Assembly: GCA_902766805.1 (NCBI GenBank)
Contig: CACXFF010000349.1
Coordinates: 1 to 32,117 of the forward strand
Direction of reading: 5' to 3'
Length of the DNA stretch: 32,117 nt
DNA from: an uncultured Coriobacteriaceae bacterium
GTDB taxonomy: Bacteria > Actinomycetota > Coriobacteriia > Coriobacteriales > Atopobiaceae
Shown piece after piece: positions 9,730 through 29,882 of the stretch. Numbering within the stretch: the first letter of the stretch is position 1; every line of letters begins with the position of its first letter. The translations under genes and the position numbers were made by a program. A model generated the notes under the pieces. It ran no database searches, was not told the origin of the DNA, and saw only the letters and a list, made by a program, of their open reading frames with translations.

Positions 9730-10048
9730 GATCCGCCTCCCGTTCTGCCGCGTGCTCTAGGGCCACGGCAATCAAAGTGGATACGTGCTCGTCGGCGAGA
9801 CTGTAAATCTGGCGCTGTCCTTCGCGCCGCGCCACAACCAGGCCGCGGTCCTTGAGCATCCGCAGCTGGTGGGATATCGCCGACTGCGAAACGTGTGCGC
9901 TCTCCACCAGCTCCCCTACCGACCGCTCCCGAAGCGAGAGCGCGGCAAGGATCTGGAAACGCGTGTAGTCCGACAGCGCGTCAAAGATCTGCGTGGCCTC
10001 GTAGACCACCGACTCGTCTCGCAGGTGACGTGTCAGGTCTTGATCCAT
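9722..10048 (-). CDS. ArsR/SmtB-family metalloregulator with an alpha-5 (CzrA/SmtB-type) metal site
   Basis: 108 aa. wHTH ELVESAHVSQSAISHQLRMLKDRGLV. C-terminal DEH-x10-H-x2-E fits DxHx10Hx2(E/H). 8-nt overlap (ATGTCTGA) with the ATPase start. Confidence 0.9.
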   Translation of the reverse strand: MDQDLTRHLRDESVVYEATQIFDALSDYTRFQILAALSLRERSVGELVESAHVSQSAISHQLRMLKDRGLVVARREGQRQIYSLADEHVSTLIAVALEHAAEREADHV

Positions 10049-10074
10049 AGGAATTACCTTTCATATGAGTAAGT

Positions 10075-10084
10075 GTTCATGAAC
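10075..10084. promoter_or_regulatory. Candidate ArsR/SmtB operator core
   Basis: Perfect 10-bp palindrome GTTCATGAAC, 27 bp upstream of the arsR ATG and just downstream of the predicted -10. TGTTCA/TGAACA half-sites are typical of this family's operators. Confidence 0.45.
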
Positions 10085-10092
10085 TCACCCAA

Positions 10093-10121
10093 AGTATAGC
10101 TCCCGTGCAAGCGCTCGCCAA
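10093..10121 (-). promoter_or_regulatory. Putative sigma-70-type promoter of the arsR-ATPase operon
   Basis: The minus strand reads TTGGCG-N17-TATACT, with -35 at 10116..10121 and -10 at 10093..10098. Confidence 0.4.
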
Positions 10122-10145
10122 GGGGTCAAAGAAAGAATTGCCGAA

Positions 10146-10527
10146 AAGCACGGGCACCCAAAGTACGCAAAACGCTACCCGTGCGACACCCGCCGTGCGC
10201 ACGGATACGGAAAGCGGAGTCTTGCGAAGTTTGGGGTGCGCACGGGTACGAAAAGTGAAGTGTTGCGACAACCGCCGTGCGCACAGGAAAGGAATCGTTA
10301 GTCGTGCGACAGCCGCCGTGCGCACGGGAAAGGAAAACGAAGCCTTGCGAAGGTCGGATGACGCACGGGTACGGAAAGTGAAGTCTTGCGGCAACCGCCG
10401 TGCGCACGGGAAAGGAATCGTTAGTCGTGCGACACCCAGCCGACGCACGGTAAAGGAATCGTTAGTCTTGCGACAACGCGCGACGCCCAAGGGCCGCATC
10501 CCGTGAAGTAAGACGTCCTTTGGGTGC
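10146..10527. repeat. Non-coding tandem array of about 9 degenerate 41-bp units
   Basis: TGCGCACGG/GACGCACGG anchors sit at 10196, 10237, 10278, 10319, 10360, 10401, 10442 and 10482, with a period of 41 (last interval 40). Unit consensus is TGCGCACGGG-(t/a)A(c/a)GGAA..AGTC(t/g)TGCGACAaCCGCCG. The array is bounded by a 10-bp inverted repeat, GCACCCAAAG (10154..10163) and CTTTGGGTGC (10518..10527). Confidence 0.85.
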
Positions 10528-10617
10528 ATGACGTTGGCGTTCCTTGACCTTGAGGAGCCAGGCTATCTCAATTGGGCCAACTCAGGCTCTCTGGAGTATG
10601 GGTTTTCGCGTCTGCGG

Positions 10618-11775
10618 TCAGAGGCCGCTGGCTGCGATGAGCTCGCAGACTTCGCGCAGGCGCTCGGGAGGCTGCACCAAAGCGAAGCGCACGTAGCCCT
10701 CGCCGTGCGGGCCGAAGCTCGCGCCCGGCGTTACGATCACGCCCGTCCGTTCCATCAGCTCCATGGCGAAGCCCAGCGAGTCCTCGCGCCCGTGGGGCAG
10801 CTTGGCCCAGACGAACATCGTGCCCTGGGCGTTGGGGCGCTCCCAGCCCGCGGCCACCAGGCCGTCGCAGAGCGCGTCACGGCGCTCCTGGTAGAGCGCG
10901 CATTGGGCGCGCACGGAATCCAAGGGCCAGGTGAGCGCTGCGATGGCGACGCGCTGCTGGGGCAGCGGCATGCCGAAGTCGATCTGGCTGTGCAGGCGCT
11001 TGAACGCCGCGATGACGTCCGGGCGTCCGACGAGGTACGAGATGCGCAGGCCCGTGACATTGAAGGACTTGGAGAGCGAGAAGAACTCCACGCCCACCTC
11101 GGCCGCGCCCTCGTAGGCCAAGAACGAGCCCCCTTGCGCGCCGTCGTAGATGATGTCGGAGTAGGCGTTGTCGTGCACGATGAGCAGGTCGTGCTCGCGG
11201 GCAAAGGCGATGAGCTCGCGGTAGAGCTCGGGGGTGCCGATCGACCCCACGGGGTTGGCGGGCAGTGACACCACCATGTAGCGGGCGGCGTCAGCGACCT
11301 CGGCGGGGATGTCCGAAACGCGTGGCACGAAGCCCGTCTCGCGGGAGAGCGGGTAGTACCAGGGGGTGGCCCCGGACAGCAGCACCGCGTTTTGGAAGAC
11401 CGGGTAGCAGGGGTCAGGCACCAGCACGGTGTCGCCCTCGTCGACGAGCGCGAGCGCGAGCATGCCCATGCCCTCCTGCGTGCCGTGCGCCGAGCACACC
11501 ATGTCGGGACTGACCTGCACGCCGAAGCGCCGCTCGTAGTAGGAGCAGACCGCCTGGAGCATTTCGGGCGTGTCCACGATGGCGTACTTCCAGCACTCGG
11601 GGTCGCGCGCCGCTTGGGCATAGGCCTCGACCAGGTGCGCGGGTGGCTCGAAGTCGGGCGTGCCGATGGACAGGTCTATGACCGCAAGGCCCTGTGCCTC
11701 GCGCTTCATGCGCAGCTCTTTGAGCGCGGCGAAAACCTCGCTCCCGAACCGGTCCAGCCTCGCCGAGAAATGCAT
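10618..11775 (-). CDS. PLP-dependent aminotransferase, class I/II fold
   Basis: 385 aa. LSIGTPDF near the N-terminus and the PLP-lysine motif FSLSKSFNVTGLRISY. Confidence 0.9.
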   Translation of the reverse strand: MHFSARLDRFGSEVFAALKELRMKREAQGLAVIDLSIGTPDFEPPAHLVEAYAQAARDPECWKYAIVDTPEMLQAVCSYYERRFGVQVSPDMVCSAHGTQEGMGMLALALVDEGDTVLVPDPCYPVFQNAVLLSGATPWYYPLSRETGFVPRVSDIPAEVADAARYMVVSLPANPVGSIGTPELYRELIAFAREHDLLIVHDNAYSDIIYDGAQGGSFLAYEGAAEVGVEFFSLSKSFNVTGLRISYLVGRPDVIAAFKRLHSQIDFGMPLPQQRVAIAALTWPLDSVRAQCALYQERRDALCDGLVAAGWERPNAQGTMFVWAKLPHGREDSLGFAMELMERTGVIVTPGASFGPHGEGYVRFALVQPPERLREVCELIAASGL

Positions 11776-11903: not shown

Positions 11904-14024
11904 TCAGCGCACCGAGGCCAAGGCGAGGTAGTCGAGCTTCGCCTCGTCGTCGCGCACGGGCAGCCATTCGGTCGGGGCGTCGCGCACGTACCAGACGCCG
12001 TCGGCCCCCTCGTATCCGTGCTCGTTGTAGGCGGGCACGGCCACGCGTGCGGCGAGCTGGGCCTTCTGGTATTCGGTGAGCGGGGCGCCGATGGCGTCGG
12101 CGACCATCGCGCCAAGGTAGTTGGGGCTCGCGTCGCGCACCAGGTCGGCCGCCGGCGTACCCGCTATGTCGTAGTTGGCCCACAGGAAATAGACCGTCTG
12201 GTGGATGCGCTCCTCATGGTCCACCCACGCCTCGTCCTTGCCAAAGATCTCGTCGTTGTACCAGTAGGAGAAGTAGGGCTGGTGGTCGCCGAAGAAGAGC
12301 AGGATGACCGGGCGCTGCAGCTGCTCGAGCTGGCCGACGAACCACTGAAGGTCCTGGTCGGAAGCCTGAATGCAGGAGAGGTACTCGTTGAGCAGCGGGT
12401 TGAACTCCTCGTCATCGAGCCCGGCCGGGTGCACGTCGGTGAGGCGCGCGGCGGGGATGTTGCCGCGGTCGTAGCCGGAGTGGTTCTGCATCGTCACGTC
12501 GAACACGAACTGCGGTGCTGCATCCTGCTCCAGGAGCTTGAGGATCAGCTGGTAGGTGGCCTTGTCGGTCACGCCGTTGTGGAACCACGGGGCGCCGCCG
12601 AACGAGTTGATGTCCAGGAAGCTCTGGAAGCCCAGGGCCGGGTATACCGTTGCGCGGTTCCAGTTCTCGGGGGCGTTGGGGTGGATGGCCGTCGTGACGT
12701 AGCCCAGCTCGTCGAACTGCTTGGGCAGGGAGGCCATCTCGGAGAGGTCGTACATGGAATAGGGGAACTTGCCCGCGCCGACCGCCTGGAGCGACACGCC
12801 TGTGAGCGTCTCGAACTCGGTGTTGCAGGTGCTGCCGCCGTATACCGAGACGCCCAGGTTGCCGCGCTCGAGCGTGTGGGTCAGGCCCTTCAGGAAGCTG
12901 GGGCCCTCATAGCCCGCGCGCAGCCCGTCGAAGCGCGAGAAGTCGTCGAAGGTCTCGTTCATCACGATCACGACGCTTGGCTTGAGCTCGTCGAACTGCT
13001 GCGTGGAGGCCGCGCGCCGCTCGGCCGAGCCCGTGTCAAAGGCCTGCGCGTAGCTGGCCTGCAGCTCGCGCGCCCCCTCGTCGCTGTAGCCCTCGGGCAT
13101 GCGGATGGGCAGGTCGTGCAGCGCCGTGACGAAGCTCGGGAGCAGGCCCTGCGCCTTGTACGACAGCGGGGCGTGCTCGATCCAGTAGAGCATGGAGAGC
13201 TGCAGGTCGTTGGCATAGTCGGGCACGGTCACCAGCGCGTAGCCCGACCACGCGGTGAGCGCTGCGAGGAACACGCTGCACAGCACGCGGCCCCATACCG
13301 GCTCACTGCGCTCGGCCACGGGGTAGGCGTAGCTGAGGGCTGCCATGGCCAGCGAGGCGTATCCCAGGCCAATGAGCATGGGACTCGTGAGCGTGTAGGC
13401 ATAGTGGCCGCTCACGTTGGCGGCCGTGGTCAGCGCGAACAGGTCGCGCGGGAAGATGGGCTCGCCACGGAATTCGTATACGTAGTGCATGGCAGTCGCC
13501 GCTATCACACACAGCGCGACGCCTGGCAGGCCGCCCACGCCGCGCCTGCCGCACAGGAAATAGCCAAAGGCCACGATCACCGCGAGCATCGCGCACTCGA
13601 TGACCACGTAGTTCCACCGTATCAGACTCCACTCGGGGTTCCAGGGAATCTCGATCGCGAAGCGCAGGCAGCACACCGCCGCGCCCAGGACTAGCAGGTC
13701 GCGCAGGCGTTCGAGGGCCCCTGCCCGCGCCTGGCCCGCAATGAGCTGGCCTATGCGCTCGCGTTGCGTGACGAGGCCTGCGGCGCCTGCGCAGAGCGCG
13801 CATCCGATCACGACGTCGCCGAAAAGCCCCTCGAGTGCCCCGGTCGCGCCGAAGGCCAACGCCACCACGAGCGTGCACGCGCAGGCGCAGGCCCATGCGT
13901 AGCTGGAACGCAGCCGCAGAGCCGAGCGGCGTTTCGCCAGCAGCAACAGCGCGGCCACGACCGCGATGCCGACGATCGGCACGAGGATCACGGTGCTCGG
14001 AAGGGTCTCAAAGGAGTCATACAT
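11904..14024 (-). CDS. LTA synthase-family (sulfatase/alkaline-phosphatase fold) membrane protein, paralog 1
   Basis: 706 aa. A multi-TM N-terminal half is followed by an extracytoplasmic domain with VMNETFDDFS, GGSTCNTEFETLTG and TMQNHSGY motifs. Confidence 0.85.
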   Translation of the reverse strand: MYDSFETLPSTVILVPIVGIAVVAALLLLAKRRSALRLRSSYAWACACACTLVVALAFGATGALEGLFGDVVIGCALCAGAAGLVTQRERIGQLIAGQARAGALERLRDLLVLGAAVCCLRFAIEIPWNPEWSLIRWNYVVIECAMLAVIVAFGYFLCGRRGVGGLPGVALCVIAATAMHYVYEFRGEPIFPRDLFALTTAANVSGHYAYTLTSPMLIGLGYASLAMAALSYAYPVAERSEPVWGRVLCSVFLAALTAWSGYALVTVPDYANDLQLSMLYWIEHAPLSYKAQGLLPSFVTALHDLPIRMPEGYSDEGARELQASYAQAFDTGSAERRAASTQQFDELKPSVVIVMNETFDDFSRFDGLRAGYEGPSFLKGLTHTLERGNLGVSVYGGSTCNTEFETLTGVSLQAVGAGKFPYSMYDLSEMASLPKQFDELGYVTTAIHPNAPENWNRATVYPALGFQSFLDINSFGGAPWFHNGVTDKATYQLILKLLEQDAAPQFVFDVTMQNHSGYDRGNIPAARLTDVHPAGLDDEEFNPLLNEYLSCIQASDQDLQWFVGQLEQLQRPVILLFFGDHQPYFSYWYNDEIFGKDEAWVDHEERIHQTVYFLWANYDIAGTPAADLVRDASPNYLGAMVADAIGAPLTEYQKAQLAARVAVPAYNEHGYEGADGVWYVRDAPTEWLPVRDDEAKLDYLALASVR

Positions 14025-14084: not shown

Positions 14085-16025
14085 TCAGCCTAGCTCCTGC
14101 AGGCTGCCGAAGTTGAGGTAGTCCAATGTGTTCAGCTCGCTGCGCAGGGCCGTGTAGTCCGTCTCGCTTTCTTGCTCGTGCCAAAGGTAATCGCCGCCCA
14201 GATAGCCCATGAGGTTGATAGCGGGCAGCTCGGGGCGTGCGGCTAGCTTGGCCTTCTGCCAGTCGCTGAGCGGTGCCCCCGCAAGCTCGAGGGCGCGTGC
14301 CGCGAGCTGGCTGCAGGACAGCACGGCCCCGCCACCAAGACCGTCGCTCGCGGGGTCCTGTGGTACGGGCTGGGCACCCGCCACCGCATAGTTGGCCCAG
14401 ACCAGCCAGTTGGTGCGGTAGGCGCGCTCGGCGTGGGTCGGCTCGGTCTCGCGTGGGTGCAGCGCGTCGTTGATCATCCACGTGAACTCGGGCTGGTGGT
14501 CGCCAAAGAAGACGACGACCACACGTTCGTCGAGCTCGAGCAGCTGGCGCAAGAACCACTCCAGGTCGCGGTCCGAGGCTTCGATGCAGGCCAGGTACTC
14601 GTTGAGCGCGTCGTCGCTCGGCAGCTCGACGCCGGGTTTGGCCAGGCTCTCCAACGTGTAGCGGGTGAGCTCGGAGCTGGGGATGTTGCCTTGGTCGTAG
14701 CCCGAGTGGTTCTGCATGGTCACGTCCATCACGAGCTGCGGCCCGTCGCGGCGCAGCAGCTCGAGGGCCTTCTCGTAGGTGGCGCGGTCGGTCACGCCGC
14801 TGTGGTAGGTCGGGGCGCCCGGGAAGTCGTCGATGGAGAGGAACGCGTCGAAGCCCAGGTCACGGTAGACGTCGCTGCGGTTCCAGTTGGCCGCCAGGTT
14901 GGGATGCATGGCGTAGGTCTCGTAGCCCAGGGCGCCGAGCTGGCGGCCCAGGTTCTCGCAGGCGCTCAGGTCGTACATCTGGAAGGGGTACTTGCCGCCG
15001 CCAATGAAGGCGAGCGAGGCCCCGGTGAGGAATTCGAACTCGGTGTTGCAGGTGCCGCCGCCATAGGCCGAGACGGCCAACGCGCCGCGGTCGAGCAGCG
15101 TGCCGCGCAGCTCGTTGATTCCGCTCGTGAAGAAGCGCGGACCCTCGTAGCCGCAGCACAGCCCGCCCGCGTCGCTGCGAAAGAAGGCGGACAGGTCGGA
15201 GAAGGTCTCGTTCATGACCACGACGATGGAGGCGGGCTGCTCGCTGAACTGCCGCGCAGCAGCGCTGCGTTGGGCCGACGAACCGGGGCCCTCGTCATAG
15301 CTGCGCGCCATGCGCGCCTGCAGGTCCTGGGCGGCCTGGGTGTCATAGTCCTGCGGGGGGCGGATCTTCATGTCCTGCCGCGCAGCGAGGAAGGTGGGCA
15401 CGAAGCCCTGCGTGCGGTAGTTCTCGATGGGCGCCCAATAGTCCAGCTGCACGCCGTAGTCGCGCTGGTAGTCGGGCTCGCGCACGAGCCGCCAGGCACC
15501 CAGCGCGCAGGCGGCGCCCAGCAGGGTGCACAGCACGACGCTCGCGACCTTTGCCCACCCCTCGTGGCGCGTCGAGGGACGTATGGCCGCCAGACAGGCG
15601 ACGGCTCCCACGCAGGCCGCCACTCCCACGAGCACGGATAGGTCGGGAGTGTAGTCGTAGTTGCCCGCCACGGCAGCCGCGGTGCGAAGGGCCAGAAGGT
15701 CGCTGGGCATGAAGGCGGTGCCCTTGAACTTCATGACGTAGTGCTGTCCCAGGCCCGCGGCCAGGCATAGGAACGGCACCGGGATGGCCCAAACGCCGCG
15801 ACGCTGGCCCAGCAGCGTGAGTGCGAGCAGCAAAAGCCCGACCATCGCAAGCTCTAGGCCCAAGAAGACCGTGGGCGTCACGAGGAACGCCAGCGAGGAG
15901 TAGGGCAGCTCCATGGCGGCCACGCTCAGCCAGGTGGCGAGCGCGAGGCGGCCCAGGTTGGCCCCTACGCGCACGGCCGTGCTGGCCTCCTGCGCCGGCG
16001 GACGCATGTGGGCGGCTTGGGACAT
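14085..16025 (-). CDS. LTA synthase-family membrane protein, paralog 2
   Basis: 646 aa with the same architecture (VMNETFSDLS, GGGTCNTEFEFLTG, TMQNHSGY). Roughly half the catalytic-domain residues are identical to paralog 1 (eyeball alignment). Confidence 0.85.
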   Translation of the reverse strand: MSQAAHMRPPAQEASTAVRVGANLGRLALATWLSVAAMELPYSSLAFLVTPTVFLGLELAMVGLLLLALTLLGQRRGVWAIPVPFLCLAAGLGQHYVMKFKGTAFMPSDLLALRTAAAVAGNYDYTPDLSVLVGVAACVGAVACLAAIRPSTRHEGWAKVASVVLCTLLGAACALGAWRLVREPDYQRDYGVQLDYWAPIENYRTQGFVPTFLAARQDMKIRPPQDYDTQAAQDLQARMARSYDEGPGSSAQRSAAARQFSEQPASIVVVMNETFSDLSAFFRSDAGGLCCGYEGPRFFTSGINELRGTLLDRGALAVSAYGGGTCNTEFEFLTGASLAFIGGGKYPFQMYDLSACENLGRQLGALGYETYAMHPNLAANWNRSDVYRDLGFDAFLSIDDFPGAPTYHSGVTDRATYEKALELLRRDGPQLVMDVTMQNHSGYDQGNIPSSELTRYTLESLAKPGVELPSDDALNEYLACIEASDRDLEWFLRQLLELDERVVVVFFGDHQPEFTWMINDALHPRETEPTHAERAYRTNWLVWANYAVAGAQPVPQDPASDGLGGGAVLSCSQLAARALELAGAPLSDWQKAKLAARPELPAINLMGYLGGDYLWHEQESETDYTALRSELNTLDYLNFGSLQELG

Positions 16026-16651
16026 CAGACGCGCGTGCCTTTCTCCAAGAAGTCATGCACGCGGCGGAGCAGGACCGTCATCTTGCCTGCGAACTCGTCG
16101 GCGTTGTAGATCACCGAGAAGTGCGGGTGGCCAGACCAAGAGGCGATGAGCCGGTCGTCCACGGCCGCCGCCTGCTCTGGCGTCTCCTTGCGAGTGGCGT
16201 TGTTCTCCAGCGTGTAGGCGCTCAGGGCGCCCTTGGCCGTGCTTACCAGGTGGAAGACCGCATCGTAGCGCGCGTAGATCTCCTCTTCCGTCATGCCCAG
16301 GTCCTCCAGCAGCCGCTCGAAACCCTCGGGCGTCATGTAGCCCTTGTTGTCCATCACGCCGCGGTCCTGGATGATGACGAGCTCCTCGTCGTCCATGCGC
16401 TCGGCCGCATGGCGGAAGGCGTCTTCTTTGGTCAGCTGCATCTCGCAGACGCTGCGCTGGAAGTCGTCGTAGGAGCGGCAGGTCCAGGGCGCGACGCCGC
16501 CCGAGATGAGCTCTGTGGCCACCTCGGGCACGAAAAGCAGCTTGTAGCCGCGCGACTCTAGGTCCGAGCGCAGCCAAGCGAGGGCCGTGGTCTTGCCCGA
16601 GCACGGGCCTCCGGTGATCACGATCGTGCGAATGCGAGGACTTGCTGCCAT
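16025..16651 (-). CDS. Stand-alone P-loop NTPase (AAA_28-like)
   Basis: Walker A ITGGPCSGKTT. The ATG at 16651 is preceded by GGAAGGGGAAG; the track start at 16678 is an alternative. The stop overlaps the ltaS-paralog-2 ATG by 1 nt (TGATG at 16023..16027). It is a paralog of the N-terminal half of the 26204..27307 product. Confidence 0.8.
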   Translation of the reverse strand: MAASPRIRTIVITGGPCSGKTTALAWLRSDLESRGYKLLFVPEVATELISGGVAPWTCRSYDDFQRSVCEMQLTKEDAFRHAAERMDDEELVIIQDRGVMDNKGYMTPEGFERLLEDLGMTEEEIYARYDAVFHLVSTAKGALSAYTLENNATRKETPEQAAAVDDRLIASWSGHPHFSVIYNADEFAGKMTVLLRRVHDFLEKGTRV

Positions 16652-16765
16652 GCTCTTCCCCTTCCTTGGCGACATCACACGCTACGTTATCAGACAGAAT
16701 ACCAAGTCCTGCCAGCTCGTCGGTGTACAGTTGTACGTACGCGGACAAGCGACGAGGAGGAAACC

Positions 16766-20460: not shown

Positions 20461-20489
20461 TTCGAAATAATGCCTGGCTTAAGTAGAAT
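20461..20489 (+). promoter_or_regulatory. Putative promoter of the dlt operon
   Basis: TTCGAA-N17-TAGAAT in the only AT-rich patch of the divergent intergenic region, about 85 nt upstream of the 20573 ATG. Confidence 0.3.
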
Positions 20490-20572: not shown

Positions 20573-20743
20573 ATGAACTCCTCCACCGATCAGAACAAGA
20601 TCTCCGATTCGGCCCGCAAGGTCGTGGCCGCCATCCTGTCGTGCAGCCTGGCGCTGGGCTCGCTGTCCCTTGCGGCCTGCGGCGGCAACTCACAGGAGCA
20701 GGACAACTGCTATGGCGAGGACATGCCGGTCGTCAACGAGTAA
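20573..20743 (+). CDS. 56-aa predicted mini-lipoprotein (below the ORF-track size cut-off)
   Basis: AGAGG RBS 7 nt upstream. MNSSTDQNKISDSARKVVAAILSCSLALGSLSLAAC|GGNSQEQDNCYGEDMPVVNE has an LAAC lipobox. About 90% GC3. The stop is 9 nt before the dltA start. Confidence 0.55.
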   Translation: MNSSTDQNKISDSARKVVAAILSCSLALGSLSLAACGGNSQEQDNCYGEDMPVVNE

Positions 20744-20752
20744 GGATGAGCC

Positions 20753-22327
20753 TTGTTTGGTAGCAAGTACCTCGATGCGGTAGAGCTTCAGGCGCAGCGC
20801 GTGCCCGACCGCCTGGTCTTCTTCAACTCCGCGGGCGAGCGCCTCAGCTATGCCGAGCTCTCCGCGCGCTCCTCTGCCCTGGCCTGCTGGCTGGCCGACG
20901 AGCGCAACCTCACCCCGGGCGTGCCGGTGGTGCTCTATGGCCACAAAGCTCCCGAGATGCTCGTGGGCATCTTCGCCTGCGCCAAGGCGGGCCACCCCTA
21001 TGCCCCCATCGACACGGTCTATCCTGCCGACCGCGTGGCCAACATCATCGAGCAGATCGGTGACACCCTCGTGCTCGACACCGCGGGCAGTTTCGACTGG
21101 GGCGCGCTGGCGCTGGACGACGCGCCGCGCGTGCTGGGTCCCGAGCAGATCCAGCAGCTGTGCGCGCAGGCCCCGAACGCCGAGGACGTCGCCGCCCTGC
21201 CGGGCAAACGTCCCCAGGACACCTTCTACATCATCTTCACCTCCGGCTCGACCGGCACGCCCAAGGGCGTAGAGGTGAGCTCGGAGTGCGTGGACGGCTT
21301 CCTGGCGTGGCTGAGCGAGGACTACGCCTTTGCCGAGGAGGGTCACCGCGTGTGGTTCAACCGCGCCGCCTACTCCTTTGACCTGTAGGTGACCGACCTG
21401 GTCTACGCTCCCGCGCACGGCGACACCTGCTTCGCTCTGGCCGAGGAGGCCGAGGGCAGCCTGGCGCTCACCTTCCAGGCGCTGGCGGAGAGCGGCATGA
21501 CGGATTGGGTCTCCACCCCGTCGTTTTTGGACCAATGCCTGGCCGATTCCTCCTTTGGCTCCGAGCTGCTCCCCCAGCTCAAGCGCATGCTGTTCGTGGG
21601 CGAGACCCTGCGCCCCGCCACCGTGCGCGGCGCCAAAGAGCGTTTTGCGGGGATTCACGTGTACAACGGCTATGGCCCCACGGAGTCCACGGACTTCGTG
21701 TCGCTGTGCGAGATCGACGACGAGATGCTTGCCGACGACAAGCCCCTGCCCGTGGGCTACGCCATGCCGGGCGTGCGCCTGGCGGTGCTCGACCCCGAGA
21801 CCCTCGAGGAGAAGCCCGTCGGCGAGCCCGGCGAGCTGTTCATCGTGGGCCACACGGTGGCCAAGGGCTACTACAAGCGCCCTGACCTCACGCAGGCGGC
21901 CTTCCACTCCTGTCCCGAGCGAGTGGCTCAGGGATCCAAATCCTATCGCACCGGCGACGAGGTCACGCTCTCACCGAGCGGCCTGTACTATTTCCACGGC
22001 CGTCTGGACCTGCAGATCAAGCTGCACGGCTTCCGCATCGAGCTGGGCGACATCGAGGCGTGCCTCTGCGCGCTGCCACAGGTGCACATGGCCTGCGTCC
22101 TGCCCGTCGTGCGCGACGGCGTGATCCACCACCTCTGTGCCTGCGTGGTGCCGGACGCGGCGACCGAGCTGCGCGGCCTGCGCCTCTCACGCCAGCTCAA
22201 GGAGGGCCTGGCCGAGACGCTGCCCGCCTACATGATACCGACGCAGTTCAAGTATCTGGACGTCCTGCCGCTCAACCAGAACGGCAAGGCGGATCGCAAG
22301 GCGCTCGCAGCGCTCATCGAGGCGTAA
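20753..22327 (+). pseudogene. dltA: D-alanine--D-alanyl carrier protein ligase DltA, interrupted by an in-frame TAG at 21386..21388
   Basis: Track ORFs 20753..21388 and 21389..22327 are one frame. Adenylation motifs are IIFTSGSTGTPKG, YSFDL*VTDL, YGPTEST, YRTGD and NGKADRK. The TAG sits where DltA orthologs have Ser (FSFDLSV). TTG start with an AAGGA RBS. Confidence 0.85.
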
Positions 22328-22336
22328 GGGGCGAGC

Positions 22337-23500
22337 GTGGATTTCTATGTGGAGCCGGCGTTTTTCGTCCTGAGCGGGGGCATCGCGCTGGTCGGAGCGC
22401 TGCTCGGCCTGTTCGAACGCAGGCAGGCGACCTTTGGCCTCGTCGCGTCGCTTGCGATGCTGGGGCTGCTCTTCTTCCGCTCGGTGCCGGCGCTCGTCTA
22501 TGCGGCGCTCTACCTGGCGTTCTCGTTGGGCCTCTACCGCTGGGTGCTTGGCCTGTTCGAGCGTCACGACCCACGGGCCGTGACGCTCTATCGCGTCGCG
22601 CTGGGCCTGCAGATAGCGCCGCTCGCCCTCTACAAGGTGGGCGTGCTCTTCACGCCTGACTTCCCGGGCTTCTTGGGCATCTCCTACATCACCTTCAAGG
22701 CGGTGCAGGCGCTCATAGAGGTGCGCGACGGGCTCATACATGACATGAGCCTCACGGAGTACCTGTACTTCCTCTCCTTCTTTCCCACCTTCACGTCCGG
22801 CCCGATCCTGCGCAGCAGGGCCTTTGTGGACAATGTGCGCGAGCAGCCCTCGCGCGACGTCTACCTGGGCAGGCTCTATCGCGGCCTGGGCTGGTTCGTG
22901 TTGGGCGCGCTGTACAAGTTCGTCTTCTCGGCGCTCGCGCAGTGGGCGCTGTGGTTCGTGCCGAGTGTGCTGGACTCCCCGGTCCTCGACTGGCTGGCCA
23001 AGGCCCTCTTCTTTGGGCTCGACCTGTTCTTCGACTTCGCCGGCTACTCCGACATGGCGATGGGCCTGGGCCTCGTCCTGGGCATCGAGGTGCCGCGCAA
23101 CTTCCACATGCCCTTCGCCGCGACCGACATCAAGGAGTTCTGGGACCGCTGGCACATCACGCTGTCCACCTGGCTGCGCGACTTCGTCTTCATGCGCTTC
23201 ACCCGCTTCGCCCTGGCGCGCAAGCTCTTCGCCAACCGTCAAGTGACGGCCTGCGTGGGCTTCGTGCTCAACATGGCGCTCATGGGCGTGTGGCACGGCA
23301 TCACCCTGGACTACATCGTCTACGGCCTGTACCACGGCCTGCTGCTGGCAGGCTGGCACTACTTCCAGCAGACTTCCAAGTTCTACAAGGCGCAGCGCAA
23401 GCAGCGTTGGTTCAAGATCGTGAGCTGGGCCTTCACGATGGTCGCCGTCTTCTTTGGCTTCGCGCTGTTCGGCGGCTACGTCTTTGGCCCCGCCCGCTAG
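22337..23500 (+). CDS. dltB: D-alanyl transfer MBOAT protein DltB
   Basis: 387 aa polytopic protein. FFDFAGYSDMA, FWDRWHITLSTWLRD and the MBOAT His in MGVWHG. GTG start. Confidence 0.9.
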   Translation: MDFYVEPAFFVLSGGIALVGALLGLFERRQATFGLVASLAMLGLLFFRSVPALVYAALYLAFSLGLYRWVLGLFERHDPRAVTLYRVALGLQIAPLALYKVGVLFTPDFPGFLGISYITFKAVQALIEVRDGLIHDMSLTEYLYFLSFFPTFTSGPILRSRAFVDNVREQPSRDVYLGRLYRGLGWFVLGALYKFVFSALAQWALWFVPSVLDSPVLDWLAKALFFGLDLFFDFAGYSDMAMGLGLVLGIEVPRNFHMPFAATDIKEFWDRWHITLSTWLRDFVFMRFTRFALARKLFANRQVTACVGFVLNMALMGVWHGITLDYIVYGLYHGLLLAGWHYFQQTSKFYKAQRKQRWFKIVSWAFTMVAVFFGFALFGGYVFGPAR

Positions 23501-23531: not shown

Positions 23532-23771
23532 ATGACCGAACTAGAGGAAAAGATCATCAACCTCGTCGTGGACATCTCCGGCGAGGAGGACATCGCCGAG
23601 GAGCGTGACCTGGACCTGTTCGAGGAGCGCGTGCTCGACTCCCTGGCCGCCATCGAGCTGCTCGTGGCCATCCAGGAGGAGTTCGGCGTGTCCATCGCCC
23701 CCACGGAGCTCGAGCGCGAGGAGATGAACACCATCAACAAGATCATCGCGCGCGTGTCCGAGCGCCTCTAG
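23532..23771 (+). CDS. dltC: D-alanyl carrier protein DltC
   Basis: 79 aa acidic protein with the phosphopantetheine Ser in VLDSLAAIELL. AAGGA RBS. The track ORF 23454..23771 is over-extended. Confidence 0.9.
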   Translation: MTELEEKIINLVVDISGEEDIAEERDLDLFEERVLDSLAAIELLVAIQEEFGVSIAPTELEREEMNTINKIIARVSERL

Positions 23772-23784
23772 GAGCGATGCCCAC

Positions 23785-24948
23785 GTGAACGCTCAGACCC
23801 AAAAGAAGCGCCTCGCGGCCCTGCTGGGCGGTGTCGCGGTCGCGGCTGCCGTGGTGGGCGCCTGCGGCGTGGCGCTGCCCGCCCAGGCAAGCGTCTCCCG
23901 GGCGCGTGACTACGGCTACGTGTATTCGGGCGCCAAGTCCACGAGCGTGGACTTCGTGCGGGCCAACCTCGACGACGAGACCCTGCTCGTGCTCGGCTCG
24001 TCGGAGTTCTCCACCCCGGCGAGCACGGTGCCCCAGGTGCCTGCCGCCGTCATGGGCGGACACAACTACGGGCTGCGCCTGATGCTCGTGGGAGAGGCCT
24101 TCGACCAGTGCCTCTGGGACGCCATGGCCCTCGGCGCGCTTGCCGACGGCGGTCTGCCGCACGACCGCGTGGCCCTGATCGTGGGCTTGGGCATGTTCAC
24201 CGACGGCGGCCTGGACAACGCGACCTTCCAAGAGCGCTTCTCGTTCCCCCTCTACCGCGGCTTCATGGCCAACCCGGCGCTGCCCGCCGAGCTCAAGCAG
24301 AAGCTGCGCGCTCGCCTGGCGGAACAGGGCGTGGACGAAGCCACGCTGCGCGCGGGCCAGCCGGGTGACCCGATCGCCGCCATCGACGGCGCCGTGCTGG
24401 GTTGGCAGAACGACCTGCGCCTGCGCCAACAGCTCATGGAAGTGCGCGACAAGAGCCTGGAGCGCGCCCAGGAGCCGGCCGTGGCGCCCGACTGGGACGC
24501 CCTCATGGCCGACGCCTATGCGACCGCGCAGCAGATGAGCACCACCAACGACTGGGGCGCGGAGGACAAGTTCTACACCACGCAGCTCGCGCCGGCGCTC
24601 GACTCGCTTGCGGGCGCACGCGCTGGGGAGACCTACAGCAACACGCCCGAATACGATGACCTCGAGCTGTTCCTGCAGGTCTGTGACGCCTGCGGCGTGG
24701 CGCCGCTCGTGATGATCGAGCCGGTGATGGGTCCCTACTACGACCACATCGGCATTGACGCCGCCACCCGTGCGTCGGCCTACGACAGGATCCGCAACGT
24801 AGTGTGGGCGCACCCCAATGCGCGGCTGGTAGACTACAGCGATCGCGAGTACGAACCGTACTTCCTTTTCGACATCGTGCATTTCGGCTGGACGGGCTGG
24901 ATCGAGGCGCAGCACGCGCTCTACGACTTCGGCACGGAAGGAGCGTGA
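23785..24948 (+). CDS. dltD: D-alanyl-lipoteichoic acid biosynthesis protein DltD
   Basis: 387 aa with an N-terminal anchor and the SGNH-like LVLGSSEF catalytic motif. Its position after dltC fits. Confidence 0.85.
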   Translation: MNAQTQKKRLAALLGGVAVAAAVVGACGVALPAQASVSRARDYGYVYSGAKSTSVDFVRANLDDETLLVLGSSEFSTPASTVPQVPAAVMGGHNYGLRLMLVGEAFDQCLWDAMALGALADGGLPHDRVALIVGLGMFTDGGLDNATFQERFSFPLYRGFMANPALPAELKQKLRARLAEQGVDEATLRAGQPGDPIAAIDGAVLGWQNDLRLRQQLMEVRDKSLERAQEPAVAPDWDALMADAYATAQQMSTTNDWGAEDKFYTTQLAPALDSLAGARAGETYSNTPEYDDLELFLQVCDACGVAPLVMIEPVMGPYYDHIGIDAATRASAYDRIRNVVWAHPNARLVDYSDREYEPYFLFDIVHFGWTGWIEAQHALYDFGTEGA

Positions 24949-24951
24949 CGT

Positions 24952-25131
24952 ATGGCACGCACGCGCAAGCTCAGCGCACGGCAGCGCTACGATGCTTGGC
25001 TGGAGGCGCACCCTGCCCTCGCCTGCCTCATCGTGGGCGCCAGCGTGGCGCTGGCCCTGATCGGCATCTTCGCCTTTGTGACGTTCTCGGGCTTTGGCGC
25101 CTCGGCAGAGTTCATCTACAACCAGTTCTAG
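24952..25131 (+). CDS. dltX: DltX-like small membrane protein (59 aa, below the ORF-track size cut-off)
   Basis: GGAAGGAG RBS 8 nt upstream. MARTRKLSARQRYDAWLEAHPALACLIVGASVALALIGIFAFVTFSGFGASAEFIYNQF has one TM helix and a C-terminal FIYNQF, matching the DltX FIYNEF-type tail. High GC3. Confidence 0.75.
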   Translation: MARTRKLSARQRYDAWLEAHPALACLIVGASVALALIGIFAFVTFSGFGASAEFIYNQF

Positions 25132-25141
25132 CGGAGGGACC

Positions 25142-26176
25142 ATGGACGGCTACGAAGACTACGGAAACTACGGAGACACGGACCGCTCACCGTACGGGTC
25201 AGACCAGAGCATCCGCCTGACCAGTCGTGAAGACCTGCGGCGCCAGGCGGACGCACGCGATGATACGGCGTACGCAGGTTCTGACATGCGGCGGGAGCGC
25301 AGCCATGACGGCGGGACCCACGATCCCCACGCTCGTCATCGCTCCTCGGAGCGCGGCCGCACGCGTCCTGCACGCAGGCGACGTGGGATTCCCGTGCCCG
25401 CAGCCGTCGTGGCAGTCGTGCTCTGCGCCGGCCTTGCGGCGCTCGTGACCTTCTTTGTGATGCGGCCTCAGGTCGCAGACGCCCAGAAGCAGGCGCGCGA
25501 CGCCAGCAACCAGGTCACGCAGCTCACGGTGGAGAACAAGCAGCTCCAGGAGCAGCTCACCCTGGCTCAGCAACAGGCCGATGCCGCGAAGACGAGCGCC
25601 TCGCAGTCCGGCTCCTCGAGCTCTGCCAACTCCTCTACCGCGCCCCAGACGGACAACAGCTCACAGACGCAGTCCTCGGGCGCCGGCCAGGGCGTCGAGA
25701 GCCCGTGGATCAAGGACGGCAAGTTCAGCACGGGCGATGCGACTCTCGACAACGAGGTCAAGGAGTTCTGCGACGGCAAGGTCAATACGTCGATGGCGCT
25801 CGAGGACGCCGCGCTCGAGGTCTACAAGGGCGTTGCGTGGGCTGACTACGTGGAACGCGCGGAGGCTCAGCACCCCTCGGGGGCCGACTGGCGCCTGCGC
25901 TTCGCACGGCAGTTCTACGAGAACAACTGCTCGGGCAACTGCTACGAGTTCGCGCCCTTCCTCGCCTACTGCCTGCGCTACCTCGGCTATTCGGACGCCA
26001 TCGCCGAAGGCTGCCTCATCGAGCAACAGAGCGGCAACTGGGGCGACCACGGCATCGTCTTCGTCACCAACACCGACGGGCGCAAGTGCCTGTGCGACAC
26101 TGCGCGCGGCACGAACGGCTGGATGCTCGACGCAGACTCCTACAATCTCACCATACAGGACTTCGAAAACGCCTAA
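25142..26176 (+). CDS. Membrane-anchored protein with a coiled-coil, a Ser/Gln-rich linker and a C-terminal transglutaminase-like (Cys-His-Asp) domain (putative)
   Basis: The ATG at 25142 follows GGAGGG. TM helix PVPAAVVAVVLCAGLAALVTFFV. The C-terminal GNCYEFAPFLAYCLRYLGY...GDHGIVFV...CDTA resembles the papain-like transglutaminase core. Confidence 0.65.
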   Translation: MDGYEDYGNYGDTDRSPYGSDQSIRLTSREDLRRQADARDDTAYAGSDMRRERSHDGGTHDPHARHRSSERGRTRPARRRRGIPVPAAVVAVVLCAGLAALVTFFVMRPQVADAQKQARDASNQVTQLTVENKQLQEQLTLAQQQADAAKTSASQSGSSSSANSSTAPQTDNSSQTQSSGAGQGVESPWIKDGKFSTGDATLDNEVKEFCDGKVNTSMALEDAALEVYKGVAWADYVERAEAQHPSGADWRLRFARQFYENNCSGNCYEFAPFLAYCLRYLGYSDAIAEGCLIEQQSGNWGDHGIVFVTNTDGRKCLCDTARGTNGWMLDADSYNLTIQDFENA

Positions 26177-26203
26177 GGCTCCTGCGCGAGGGAGGATGAA
26201 CCC

Positions 26204-27307
26204 ATGTCCATCAGCAAGATCGTCATCACCGGTGGTCCCTGCGCTGGCAAGACCACGGCGCTCAGCCGTATTCAGCGCGACCTGTCCCACCTGGGCTACA
26301 CCGTCCTGATCGTGCCCGAGACCGCCACCTCCCTCATCTCTGGCGGCGTGGCGCCGTGGACCTGCGCCTCCAATGTGGAGTACCAGAAGTGCCAGATGCG
26401 CATGCAACGCGAAAAGGAGCAGGTCTTCGAACAGGCTGCGCGCACCATGCCGCAGGACAAGATCCTGATCGTCTGCGACCGCGGCGAGCTCGACAACAAG
26501 GCCTATATGACCGACGAGGAGTTCGCCGAGGTCCTGGCGTACCTGGGCGAGACCGAGACCGAGCTGCGCGACAACTACGATGCCGTCTTCCACCTGGTCT
26601 CCGCGGCCAAGGGCGCCGAGGAGTTCTACACGCTCGACAACAACGAGGCGCGCTACGAGACGGCCGAGCAGGCCGCCGAGCTCGACGACCGCTTCATCGC
26701 CTCCTGGACCGGGCATCCCTACCTGCGCGTCATCGACAACGCGCAGGACTTCGAGGACAAGATGCGTGCCCTCATCCGCGAGATCAGCTATTTCCTGGGC
26801 GAGCTCGCGCCGTACGAGATCGAGCGCAAGTTCCTCGTCGAACCGCCCGACCTGGCGTGGCTCGAGAGCCTGCCCAACTGCAAGCGCGTGCAGATCGTCC
26901 AGACCTACCTGCGTTCCGACCCCGACCACGAGGTGCGCATCCGCAAGCGCGGCAACGATGACGACTGCCTCTATTACCTCACCGACAAGCGCATGGTCCG
27001 CAGCCATCGGCGTCTCATGACGCAGCGCAGGCTCACGGCAAGCGAGTATCACATGCTCCTGTCCCAGGCTGATCCGAACAAGCGCGAGATCCGCAAGACG
27101 CGCTACTGCCTCACCTTCCAGGGCCAGTACTTCGAGATCGACCTGTTCCCGTGCTGGGACGACCAGGCCATGGTGGAGATCGAGCTCTCGAGCGAGGACA
27201 CCCCCGTGGTCTTCCCGGAACAGATCAAGGTGATCCGCGAAGTGACCGGCGACGCACGCTACCGCAACAGCACGATGGCCTCCAAGCCCCAGGGCGCAAC
27301 CCACTAG
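26204..27307 (+). CDS. P-loop NTPase (AAA_28-like) fused to a CYTH (triphosphate tunnel metalloenzyme) domain
   Basis: Walker A ITGGPCAGKTT. The C-terminal half has YEIERKF (ExExK), VRIRKRG, IRKTRY, FEIDLF and VEIEL, alternating basic and acidic strands as in CYTH. Confidence 0.85.
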   Translation: MSISKIVITGGPCAGKTTALSRIQRDLSHLGYTVLIVPETATSLISGGVAPWTCASNVEYQKCQMRMQREKEQVFEQAARTMPQDKILIVCDRGELDNKAYMTDEEFAEVLAYLGETETELRDNYDAVFHLVSAAKGAEEFYTLDNNEARYETAEQAAELDDRFIASWTGHPYLRVIDNAQDFEDKMRALIREISYFLGELAPYEIERKFLVEPPDLAWLESLPNCKRVQIVQTYLRSDPDHEVRIRKRGNDDDCLYYLTDKRMVRSHRRLMTQRRLTASEYHMLLSQADPNKREIRKTRYCLTFQGQYFEIDLFPCWDDQAMVEIELSSEDTPVVFPEQIKVIREVTGDARYRNSTMASKPQGATH

Positions 27308-28221
27308 CGGCGGGCAGCCTCCCGCTTGTCCGCGGCACCCACCTCGGAGCGCAGCACGCGCAGGAACTCGAGTGCTGCGCGCGACATGGGTTGGTAGCGC
27401 TTCCAGACGACGCGCGCCGTGAGCGGCTCAAGGTCCGTGAGCGGCACGAAGGCGAAGGCCGTGCCCTCCCCCGTCGCCACCAAGCCGCCGAGGGTCACGC
27501 AGACGCCCAAGCCCTGCTCCACGAGCAGCGACGCGTTGTACAGCAGCGTGTGGGTCGCGACGATGTCGAGGCCCTTCCCCTCGTAGAAGGCGGGCGTGGT
27601 GGAGGCCGCTCCCTCATGGGCATCGTGGCTCTGCGAGCTCACGATGAGGCTTTCGCCGCAGAGGTCGGCCAAGGTCAGCTCCTTGCGCTGGGCCAGCGGA
27701 TGGTCGGCCCGCATGAGCACGCCCCAGCTGTCCCTGTGGGGCAGCACGAGGCTCTCGTGGTGTCCGCCGGGCTCGCGGCCGAGCGTCACGCCGAAGTCCA
27801 GCAGCCCCTTGTCCACACGTTCGAGCACGTCGTCCGCGTTGCCCGAGTGCAGGCGCAGGCGGACGCGAGGATGCAGCTGGCGCAGGCGCACGGTCGTGCG
27901 CGCGATCACCTCCATGGCGCGCGACTCGCCGCCGCCAACCCACACGTCGCCCTCCACTTGGGCGGTCGGCGAGCGTATCTCCAGCTCGGTGCGGTCTGCC
28001 AGCCCGACGATCTCCTCGGCGCGTTTGCGCAGGAGCATGCCCTCGTCGGTGAGAGTCACGCCGCGGGCGGAACGTATGAGCAGCTCACAGCCAAACTCGC
28101 GCTCGAGCTCGGAGAGCTGGCGCGAGAGCGCGGGCTGCGTGATGTGCAGTGTCGCCGCGGCGCGCGTGACGTTGCCTTCGCGGGCGACGGCCAAAAACGA
28201 TCTCAGCGTGCGCAGCTCCAT
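27304..28221 (-). CDS. LysR-family transcriptional regulator
   Basis: The ATG at 28221 follows AAGGAG. MELRTLRSFLAVAREGNVTRAAATLHITQPALSRQLSELE HTH. Convergent 4-nt overlap (CTAG) with the preceding gene. Confidence 0.9.
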   Translation of the reverse strand: MELRTLRSFLAVAREGNVTRAAATLHITQPALSRQLSELEREFGCELLIRSARGVTLTDEGMLLRKRAEEIVGLADRTELEIRSPTAQVEGDVWVGGGESRAMEVIARTTVRLRQLHPRVRLRLHSGNADDVLERVDKGLLDFGVTLGREPGGHHESLVLPHRDSWGVLMRADHPLAQRKELTLADLCGESLIVSSQSHDAHEGAASTTPAFYEGKGLDIVATHTLLYNASLLVEQGLGVCVTLGGLVATGEGTAFAFVPLTDLEPLTARVVWKRYQPMSRAALEFLRVLRSEVGAADKREAARR

Positions 28222-28257
28222 GTCGCGCTCCTTTGCTTTTGCTGGTCCCATGCTGTC

Positions 28258-28296: not shown

Positions 28297-29034
28297 ATGT
28301 TTGGGGAATGCTCGGCATCGGTTAACGGGTCTGGGGATGGGGACATGGAAACGCCAGCGGGAGTCCGTGCGTGGGAGCGCGCAATGGCCGACGAGCTGCG
28401 GCCCTGGGGCGTCGAGGCCTTGGGCATCTGCTGGGGCGAACCGCGCGGCTGGGACGAGGGCGGCTCACGCATCGTGCCGCACGAGGACGGCACGCGCCTG
28501 GTGTTGACGCACGACGAGCGTGAGGCCCCGTATGCGTTGCGGCCAGACGGCCGCGAGGACACCGGACTACTCGTGAGCCTCAGCGACGAGGATGCGCTGG
28601 CGACCTGCGCTTGGGCCCGCGTCACGCCTGATTCGCAGGTCGTGGGCCTAGGCATCGACCTGGCGGACCCACGGGATTTCGCGGGCGCACGAGGCGAGCG
28701 CTTCAACCGCCTGCTGTTCACCCAAGCAGAGCAGGGCCTGGTGCCCGCCCTTGCCCCCGGGGACGAAGCCCTGGGCTATGCCTATGCCTTCTCGGCCAAG
28801 GAGGCGGCGTTCAAGGCCTGCGCAGCTCCGCTGCGGCGCTGGTACGAGGCCCATGACGAAGAGCTGGTCTTCGACCTGCGAGGGTTCGAGCTCGCCGACC
28901 TGCGCCACGAGGCGGGCACGGCGCGTGACGGAGCCGCACAGGCGGCGCTTGACGCCCTGGGCATCCGCGCCATAGAGCTGTTCCGCACAGAAGTCCAGGG
29001 CTGTGCCTGTACCGTCGCGTGGGCGCGCGCCTAG
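28297..29034 (+). CDS. 4'-phosphopantetheinyl transferase superfamily protein
   Basis: GLGIDLAD (GxD) and FSAKEAAFKA ((F/W)(S/T)xKE(A/S)xxK) motifs. The start is uncertain: at 28297 the SD is only 1 nt away, and ATG 28345 (METPAG) is an alternative. Confidence 0.7.
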   Translation: MFGECSASVNGSGDGDMETPAGVRAWERAMADELRPWGVEALGICWGEPRGWDEGGSRIVPHEDGTRLVLTHDEREAPYALRPDGREDTGLLVSLSDEDALATCAWARVTPDSQVVGLGIDLADPRDFAGARGERFNRLLFTQAEQGLVPALAPGDEALGYAYAFSAKEAAFKACAAPLRRWYEAHDEELVFDLRGFELADLRHEAGTARDGAAQAALDALGIRAIELFRTEVQGCACTVAWARA

Positions 29035-29882
29035 CCCTGCAGGAAGGCGGGGAGCTCGCCCCGGCGGGTCGCCTGTGCGATCTGCTCGAAAGCGGCGGCC
29101 ACCGAGTCCTCCGCGGATGGCCCGATGTGCCAACGCGTCGCCGCGTTGGCCTCGGCGCAGGCGTTGCCGACCGCCACCGCATAGGGGAACGGCTCGAGCA
29201 TGGACAGGTCGTTCTCGGAATCGCCGAACGTCGCTATCTCATCGTCGCCCAGGCCGAGCGCCTGTGCCAGGATGCGCACCGCGCTCCCCTTCCCGTAGCC
29301 CGCGGGCAGGATGTCCAGGATGGGGGCGCTGTTGCTGGGGAACACGAAGTCCAGCTCGGGCACTTCGCTGCGCAGCAGGTCGCGGATCTCCGTGTGACGC
29401 ACCCGAGAGCCCTGTGCGAGGTGCACGTTGGCCTTGAGCGAGGGCTCCTCGACGCACGAGGCCATCCCAAAGAGCCTCGACCACGCGCTCAGGCCTACGT
29501 GCGGACGGCTGCCACGCGAGGTCACGAAGCAGCCTTGGCCGTCGTAGTCCATCCCATAGAGCGTGAGAGCAGCGTCGCCCTCGGCGTCGCAGATGTCGGC
29601 CACGCGCTGCAGGGGCTCGACCGGGCAGTACTCACGATGGATGACCGACCCGTCCAAGAGCACAATCTGCCCGTTGGAGAAGGCGCCGGTCGCATAGGCG
29701 GGCTCATAGCCGCAGAACATGCCTTCCATCGAAGAAGGCGTGCGGCCGGATACCGGCCCGAAGTGCACGCCCGCGTCCAAGAGCTCCCGTATGGCGTCCA
29801 GCGCCCGCGGGCTCGCGTTCTCCTGTCCGGCGTCATGGCTGATGAGGGTGTCGTCGAGGTCGGTCATCACGAGCTTAATCAT
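29031..29882 (-). CDS. Cof-type HAD-IIB phosphatase
   Basis: MIKLVMTDLDDTL (DxDxT) and GDSENDLSML motifs. 283 aa. Confidence 0.9.
   Translation of the reverse strand: MIKLVMTDLDDTLISHDAGQENASPRALDAIRELLDAGVHFGPVSGRTPSSMEGMFCGYEPAYATGAFSNGQIVLLDGSVIHREYCPVEPLQRVADICDAEGDAALTLYGMDYDGQGCFVTSRGSRPHVGLSAWSRLFGMASCVEEPSLKANVHLAQGSRVRHTEIRDLLRSEVPELDFVFPSNSAPILDILPAGYGKGSAVRILAQALGLGDDEIATFGDSENDLSMLEPFPYAVAVGNACAEANAATRWHIGPSAEDSVAAAFEQIAQATRRGELPAFLQG

Follow-up and report, generated by a model that had tools for sequence, protein, structure and literature searches.

The window analysed here is a 32,117-nucleotide (nt) stretch of DNA from an uncultured Coriobacteriaceae bacterium (contig CACXFF010000349.1). 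It carries a dlt operon for teichoic-acid D-alanylation and, behind dltA-B-C-D-X on the same strand, two further genes, one encoding a transglutaminase-like membrane protein (TGL) and the other a fusion of an AAA_28 P-loop domain to a CYTH domain. The initial annotation of this sequence had described both open reading frames (ORFs; 25142-26176 and 26204-27307), the gaps of 10 and 27 nt in front of them, and a convergent next gene overlapping by 4 nt, and all of this was confirmed. The genes of the block are as follows (aa, amino acids):

20573-20743, + strand: lipoprotein ORF (56 aa) with lipobox LAAC and C-terminal motif EQDNCYGEDMPVVNE
20753-22327, + strand: dltA, D-alanine--carrier protein ligase, with AMP-binding and AMP-binding_C domains, one per half (see below)
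22337-23500, + strand: dltB, MBOAT family (PF03062, E 3.3e-21)
23532-23771, + strand: dltC, D-alanyl carrier protein (NCBIfam DltC equivalog, 74.4 bits against a cut-off of 68)
23785-24948, + strand: dltD (PF04914, E 7.6e-64)
24952-25131, + strand: dltX-like membrane microprotein (59 aa) after dltD, C-terminus FIYNQF
25142-26176, + strand: TGL (344 aa), assigned by fold, motifs and dlt synteny
26204-27307, + strand: AAA_28-CYTH fusion (367 aa), with AAA_28 at aa 1-~195 and a NeuTTM-like CYTH/TTM domain at aa ~200-360
27304-28251, - strand: convergent LysR-family regulator (HTH_1 and LysR_substrate), which ends the string of + strand genes

A GGAGG ribosome-binding site is present in each of the two gaps, the 10 nt between dltX and TGL and the 27 nt between TGL and the fusion, and the LysR gene overlaps the fusion stop codon in the sequence CTAG. 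Scanning with an E. coli-type consensus revealed a single promoter-like site at 20462-20489, 5' of the operon, and no terminator-like or promoter-like site from dltX to the end of the fusion gene; as that consensus was applied to an actinobacterium of ~66% GC, both results are weak evidence. Co-transcription is nevertheless plausible, since both genes are tightly packed behind dltX with no terminator-like site. The ORF after dltD matched no Pfam or NCBIfam model. It encodes one hydrophobic segment, and its FIYNQF ending fits the FXYXXF acyl-shuttle motif by which DltX is defined (PMC12148441), as expected of a DltX microprotein. This ending was identical in all relatives, and the position of dltX was the same in all related loci.

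TGL proved to be tightly linked to dlt. In 12/12 loci with upstream sequence, from ~10 lineages, a TGL ortholog (43-98% identity) directly followed dltX (loci L088, L089/90/93, L091, L094 and L096-L101), with dltD upstream in nearly all of them; the TGL metagenome scan yielded only 8 loci. The flanks of this block vary. Upstream we found FtsH in L089, L100 and L101, flavodoxin/glutaredoxin in L091 and cobW in the window. Directly 3' of TGL, L089 and L101 have a TGL paralog, L091 has a LUD-domain gene, and L100 has a second MBOAT and a DHHW gene with a TGL paralog behind them; the fusion takes this place in L088, L092 and L095 alone, with 91-100% identity to the fusion of the window. Co-location conserved across differing flanks is what is expected of a component of the dlt operon, and TGL is a conserved, non-canonical member of that operon in this clade. 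The view that a transglutaminase-like protein lies outside the canonical Dlt pathway stands, yet the protein is a real operon member. In the library searched, no paper connected dlt to a transglutaminase-like protein or reported on dlt in Coriobacteriia, and we came across no account of the TGL family.

Some members of the TGL family occur in other settings. One distant homolog (31% identity) is located away from dlt. TGL paralogs (29-38% identity) lie 3' of the dlt-linked TGL in L100 (8978-13391), L089 (9146-10333) and L101 (9224-10228); the paralog in L100 sits behind a second, DltB-like MBOAT (32%) and a DHHW/ALGX-type protein, and a DltB-like MBOAT is likewise found 3' of TGL in L097 (2140-2787). 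This suggests that the TGL family partners generally with MBOAT-type polymer acylation systems. In L096 (1032-2455), dltX and TGL appear to come straight after dltC; no dltD was detected in between, and there was no dltB match upstream. This order reflects either a variant operon or an assembly artefact.

The fusion behaved differently. Its family comprises >7,384 clusters at E <=1e-5 in Clostridia and Coriobacteriales, with homologs named in their sources as 'AAA family ATPase' or 'CYTH domain-containing protein/predicted ATPase'. Scanning GTDB, with a single genome for each species, gave at least 578 relatives, and the loci of the best 80, from Coriobacteriales and many Clostridia families, were searched by tblastn with the DltA, DltB, DltC, DltD, DltX and TGL proteins of the window; at least 3 kb of upstream sequence was present in 56 of these loci and at least 6 kb in 41. 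Neither a dlt gene nor TGL was detected within 10 kb of the fusion in any of the 80 species-representative loci, nor in two further metagenome lineages, and the fusion lay 3' of the dlt/TGL block in 0/9 other lineages. In assembly GCA_030529625.1, the fusion and the dlt genes with TGL are on separate contigs (JAUMWN010000008, locus L011, and JAUMWN010000009, locus L091, respectively). Nor was an LtaS-like gene present in any fetched locus. Clustering of three neighbours per side in 77/80 loci (the other 3 were without a callable fusion ORF) revealed no conserved partner; the largest neighbour cluster covered 5/77 loci, and the recurring clusters were ECF S-components, VTC domain proteins and second copies of the fusion. 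Two further orthologs were found in GGDEF/FeoAB and zinc-ribbon/SbcCD contexts. The co-location across lineages that marks TGL as a dlt component is thus absent for the fusion. The initial annotation had placed both genes in the dlt operon, with a CYTH/P-loop module hard-wired to D-alanylation, and had named a lack of enrichment of fusion orthologs beside dlt or ltaS as grounds for refuting this. Operon membership holds for TGL; for the fusion, although co-transcription is plausible, neither the enrichment nor the hard-wiring is borne out in the genomes compared.

Two Coriobacteriales loci point to how the fusion came to lie beside dlt. In L011 and L012 (fusion 73-74% identical), cobW lies upstream and a Cof-type HAD gene directly 3' of the fusion, and there is no dlt; the window likewise has cobW and HAD on either side of the region. 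In L011, LDH, PAS-GGDEF-EAL and GNAT genes lie between cobW and the fusion, where the window has dlt. Because L011 and L012 keep the order cobW...fusion-HAD without dlt, the fusion would be the backbone gene and the dlt block the element that moved beside it, filling in the window lineage a variable slot just 5' of the fusion, between cobW and the fusion. The gap left is 27 nt, and therefore the fusion is probably transcribed from dlt by read-through. Judged from these gene orders, the adjacency appears to be a lineage-specific juxtaposition by genome rearrangement and not the mark of a shared pathway.

TGL has a disordered, presumably cytoplasmic N-terminus, a transmembrane helix (aa 83-107, nt 25388-25462), a coiled coil, a Ser/Gln-rich low-complexity linker and a C-terminal domain with Cys267, His303 and Asp319 (nt 25931-26104). 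In an AlphaFold2 (AF2) model, the C-terminal domain is compact with a predicted local distance difference test score (pLDDT) >90, and a long helix includes the membrane segment. The initial annotation had proposed Pfam searches for the AAA_28, CYTH and transglutaminase core families. AAA_28 scored above its cut-off, whereas CYTH and Transglut_core fell below theirs, although relatives by fold and sequence support both. For TGL, Transglut_core reached 17.2 bits against a cut-off of 23 (E 0.006) and Acetyltransf_2 20.3 bits against 22.8, both below the Pfam cut-off, and NCBIfam gave no specific match for either TGL or the fusion. Foldseek matched the C-terminal domain, at probability 1.0, to PeiP/PeiW, arylamine N-acyltransferases, LapG and TglA, and also to vasohibins. 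The best matches were the pseudomurein endo-isopeptidases PeiP/PeiW and LapG, with arylamine N-acyltransferases ranking almost equal. The motifs GNC267YEFA, WGDH303 and D319 (GxCxxFA...H...D) are kept in 16/18 aligned homologs, D319 being invariant. Exhaustive HMMER searching of 1.84 billion representatives with this domain gave 129 matches at E <=1e-3, the remote ones being true PF01841 Transglut_core proteins with SLH, ChW, ricin-lectin or Bsp cell-surface modules. Database-wide, TGL homologs form only 76 clusters, all of unnamed proteins, and wherever a source is named it belongs to the Atopobiaceae or Coriobacteriales. We assign TGL to the transglutaminase-like superfamily despite the sub-threshold Pfam scores because of its fold, its GxCxxFA...H...D motif with the Cys-His-Asp triad, and its transitive matches to PF01841 proteins. 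A run of arginines precedes the membrane helix, which suggests that the catalytic domain faces outward; TGL would then be a single-pass membrane protein with its catalytic domain outside, where the active site of DltD and the tyrosine of DltX also lie.

The Cys-His-Asp triad in its GxCxxFA...H...D arrangement and the fold are common to TGL and to PeiW/PeiP, LapG, the arylamine N-acetyltransferases and TglA. TGL is set apart from the rest of that superfamily by being a very small separate family with its own anchor, coiled coil and linker, and a fixed position in the dlt operon. Like DltX, it would be an extra extracytoplasmic factor of the D-alanylation pathway. The D-Ala esterases DltE and FmtA also act on this pathway outside the cytoplasm and are serine enzymes of the penicillin-binding-protein type, in contrast to TGL, which is a Cys-His-Asp enzyme by its conserved residues.

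All motifs quoted for the fusion in the initial annotation were located in its sequence (GGPCAGKTT at aa 10-18, EIERKF at 205-210, RIRKRG at 245-250, KTRY at 298-301, FEIDLF at 310-315 and VEIEL at 324-328), and its reading as a P-loop domain fused to CYTH was upheld. The N-terminal half matched AAA_28 end to end (96.4 bits against a cut-off of 27, E 2.7e-27, profile positions 1-164 of 164) and includes the Walker A motif, as expected of this family. Pfam CYTH (PF01928) gave 17.0 bits against a cut-off of 23.2, and orthologs at ~65% identity carry PF01928. In a phmmer search of the PDB, ~156 residues of the C-terminal half aligned with NeuTTM (2FBL/3TYP) at E 5e-8 and 29-30% identity, and a profile of the family matched NeuTTM at E 1e-10. 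The AF2 model of the fusion (pLDDT 79.8; predicted template modelling score 0.73) is at pLDDT ~80-90 in the C-terminal half, for which Foldseek returned 3TYP/2FBL (E 5e-10, template modelling (TM) score 0.73), then AtTTM3, CyaB-type class IV cyclases and SaTTM. The N-terminal half resembled the thymidylate kinase, deoxycytidine kinase and NRK1 folds.

In an alignment of 14 sequences, the Walker A motif GGPCAGKT and the motifs DRG, ExExK, RxR, KxR, ExD and ExE are invariant, and with them the tunnel residues E205/E207/K209, R245/R247, K298/R300, E311/D313 and E327. Y235 and K262 are also invariant and match Tyr28/Lys52, the proposed catalytic dyad of NeuTTM (PMC3440374). The fusion thus combines ExExK, the basic tunnel residues, the acidic metal ligands and the beta-barrel tunnel fold that characterise CYTH/TTM proteins. 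Since the tunnel domain retains its full set of catalytic residues, the protein probably has triphosphatase activity. As predicted from its sequence, it is probably a two-domain cytoplasmic enzyme in which a NeuTTM-type tunnel domain follows a P-loop nucleoside/nucleotide-kinase-like domain, and it may function in nucleotide or phosphate metabolism.

Comparison with known proteins places the fusion in a known architecture class, although the literature searched gave nothing relevant on CYTH in combination with AAA_28 or NadR. NeuTTM (Nitrosomonas europaea NE1496), a specific inorganic triphosphatase, shares with it ExExK, the basic tunnel residues, the acidic metal ligands and the Tyr/Lys pair; NeuTTM is a single-domain protein, whereas in the fusion the CYTH domain lies behind an AAA_28 P-loop domain. 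Fusions of nucleotidyl kinases to CYTH have been noted since CYTH was defined, as stated in PMC8233210 (citing Iyer and Aravind 2002), and AtTTM1/2 are structurally characterised kinase-TTM fusions in plants (PMC9582702). Arabidopsis TTM1/TTM2 (7Z67) have the same domain order as the fusion, an N-terminal P-loop kinase-like domain and then the TTM tunnel. However, the kinase family differs (AAA_28, NadR-RNK-like, in the fusion; UCK in plant TTM1/2), whole-length superposition of the fusion on 7Z67 was poor (TM score 0.25, root mean square deviation 20.9), and the fusion has by sequence no C-terminal hydrophobic segment or membrane anchor, whereas plant TTM1/2 are tail-anchored. The AtTTM1 tunnel is catalytically dead, while the acidic residues are intact in the fusion. 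The features of the plant TTM1/2 type, a UCK kinase packed on TTM with a tail anchor, are thus not those of the fusion. Its N-terminal half shares the end-to-end AAA_28 match and the thymidylate kinase/deoxycytidine kinase/NRK1 fold with the ribosylnicotinamide-kinase domain of NadR and NRK1-type kinases, but there is no nicotinamide mononucleotide adenylyltransferase domain, the partner domain being CYTH. Many Clostridia homologs of the fusion carry an extra N-terminal HTH_3 (XRE) domain (P0103-P0120), which we take to recall the architecture of NadR.

Several observations bear on the setting of the fusion. In a few Clostridia, the gene directly 3' of it encodes an ECF-transporter S component (5 loci; for example L054 8160-8801) or a VTC polyphosphate-polymerase-like domain protein (4 loci; for example L066 10466-11215). 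Several Coriobacteriales (L008, L013, L014, L015 and L016) have two nearby AAA_28-CYTH copies, as at 10001-11098 and 13854-14930 in L015. The variable contexts, and a Wadjet neighbour in L005, had prompted a reading as a defence system, which was dropped when PADLOC models gave no meaningful match. Among the neighbours of AAA_28 and AAA_28-CYTH genes in Coriobacteriales, Cof-type HAD phosphatase genes (Hydrolase_3) recur most often (L011 7515-8279, - strand; L012 11113-11937, - strand; L105 5182-8453; for the window see below), and this recurrence may hint that one enzyme phosphorylates a small metabolite which the other dephosphorylates. Together with the PfkB and nucleoside-salvage genes described below beside the AAA_28-only paralog, and the ECF S-component and VTC neighbours in a few Clostridia, the HAD genes provide weak contextual hints to the function of the fusion. 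Other features of the window that enter the argument are:

11904-14024, - strand: LtaS-like gene (Sulfatase, multiple transmembrane segments), in tandem with the next
14085-16025, - strand: LtaS-like gene (Sulfatase, multiple transmembrane segments)
16025-16678, - strand: AAA_28-only paralog, without CYTH, 56% identical to the N-terminal half of the fusion
28297-29034, + strand: 4'-phosphopantetheinyl transferase (ACPS), two genes beyond the dlt block, behind the LysR gene
29031-29882, - strand: Cof-type HAD

Overall, we are fairly confident that TGL is a true dlt member with a predicted role as a Cys enzyme, and that the fusion is a free-standing enzyme brought beside dlt by rearrangement. 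Several points count against this. The tight spacing, the ribosome-binding sites and the lack of a terminator-like site favour co-expression of the fusion with dlt in this lineage, which is likely; the dlt/TGL/fusion order is kept in L088 although TGL is only 63% identical there; and the start/stop coupling of the AAA_28-only paralog to the two LtaS-like genes is a second adjacency of a P-loop gene to teichoic-acid genes in the window. Loci were found by similarity to proteins of the window, so that very divergent dlt genes could be missed. The fusion might on such grounds be an accessory or regulator of teichoic-acid D-alanylation here, with the AAA_28-only paralog serving the LtaS genes; its task might be to detect or break down a signal made of triphosphate or polyphosphate, or to keep ATP and pyrophosphate in balance for DltA. 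The 27-nt gap with its ribosome-binding site and no terminator-like site, the order kept in L088, L092 and L095, and the paralog at 16025-16678 all fit such a role. However, linkage was found in 0/80 species-representative loci and 0/9 other dlt/TGL lineages, the fusion and dlt lie on separate contigs in GCA_030529625.1, and the fusion is cytoplasmic by prediction and abundant across many Clostridia lineages. The paralog offers little help, since the two divergent orthologs inspected lie beside PfkB kinases (L103) or nucleoside-salvage genes and three Cof-type HAD genes (L105), with no LtaS beside them. A role as regulator of D-alanylation is thus improbable, and we think a functional recruitment of the fusion to dlt confined to this lineage equally improbable; that the lineage recruited AAA_28 paralogs to both its LtaS and its Dlt modules is more improbable still.

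For TGL, the question is what it does within the operon. In the window, which comes from a gut or rumen bacterium of the Atopobiaceae/Coriobacteriales, the operon runs small lipoprotein, dltA, dltB, dltC, dltD, dltX and, as a clade-specific sixth gene, TGL. Cys267 would form an acyl-thioester outside the membrane and pass D-alanine on to a further acceptor in the wall, the donor being DltX, DltD or lipoteichoic acid; alternatively, TGL might remove or trim D-alanyl esters or wall cross-links. We infer both this mechanism and the membrane orientation. A sixth catalytic Dlt step of this kind in Atopobiaceae/Coriobacteriales, in which D-alanine is transferred as a thioester to a second wall acceptor or edited off, is a tentative proposal that we rate as unlikely. 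It is possible, if still rather unlikely, that TGL is instead a wall hydrolase or cross-linker (a PeiW/PeiP-like isopeptidase or a LapG-like protease) that shares with dlt only the regulation of envelope remodelling and does not act on D-alanine esters. The top fold matches to PeiP/PeiW and LapG, the remote relatives among surface proteins that combine Transglut_core with SLH, ChW or lectin modules, and the paralogs beside a different MBOAT and DHHW acylation pair are consistent with such an enzyme, whereas the strict position after dltX across differing flanks favours a link at the level of the pathway, and the arylamine N-acyltransferases, which transfer acyl groups by way of a thioester, match almost equally well. 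The gene order would carry no meaning at all if the operon were decaying, with dltA a pseudogene and the downstream genes no longer selected as a unit. An in-frame TAG does occur in dltA at 21386-21388 (SFDL*VTDL), where orthologs have a conserved Ser codon (TCG in L091). This is, however, a single C-to-A difference in a sequence that is probably a metagenome assembly, and the remaining genes of the dlt set are intact and conserved, as are TGL and the fusion (identities to L088 of 93% for DltB, 95% for DltC, 88% for DltD and 91% for the fusion). A sequencing error or strain-specific mutation is at least as likely, and we consider decay of the operon improbable. The TAG could itself have arisen by nonsense mutation or faulty assembly, or mark a recoded codon; an exact lookup of DltB gave zero matches, so there was no independent assembly in which to check it.

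The small lipoprotein ORF is likely the first gene of the operon. It had no Pfam match, and its orthologs lie directly 5' of dltA in L089, L100 and L101 and between dltA and dltB in L091, so that it looks like a further undescribed member of the dlt operon of this clade. The ACPS gene, whose order behind dlt and LysR is repeated in L088, is not near dlt in other lineages; its product could load DltC.

A triphosphate or nucleotide module wired to D-alanylation would be a new regulatory layer, but comparative genomics lends it no support. The AAA_28-CYTH family is of interest for its own sake, as a large and biochemically uncharacterised group found widely among gut Clostridia and Coriobacteriales. 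The dlt operons of this clade carry two conserved non-canonical genes, the upstream mini-lipoprotein and the downstream TGL of a tiny uncharacterised family. The route of D-alanine to other wall polymers is still debated. TGL, as a conserved Cys-His-Asp enzyme at the dlt position, therefore offers a candidate, amenable to testing, for an additional step of transfer or editing. The extracellular Dlt route, from the DltX tyrosine to the DltD serine and on to lipoteichoic acid, was only recently resolved (PMC12148441). While the fusion is a widespread uncharacterised member of a known architecture class, TGL and the mini-lipoprotein extend a known pathway in one clade and, if TGL does carry out a sixth step, it would provide a genetic handle on the movement of D-alanine past lipoteichoic acid.

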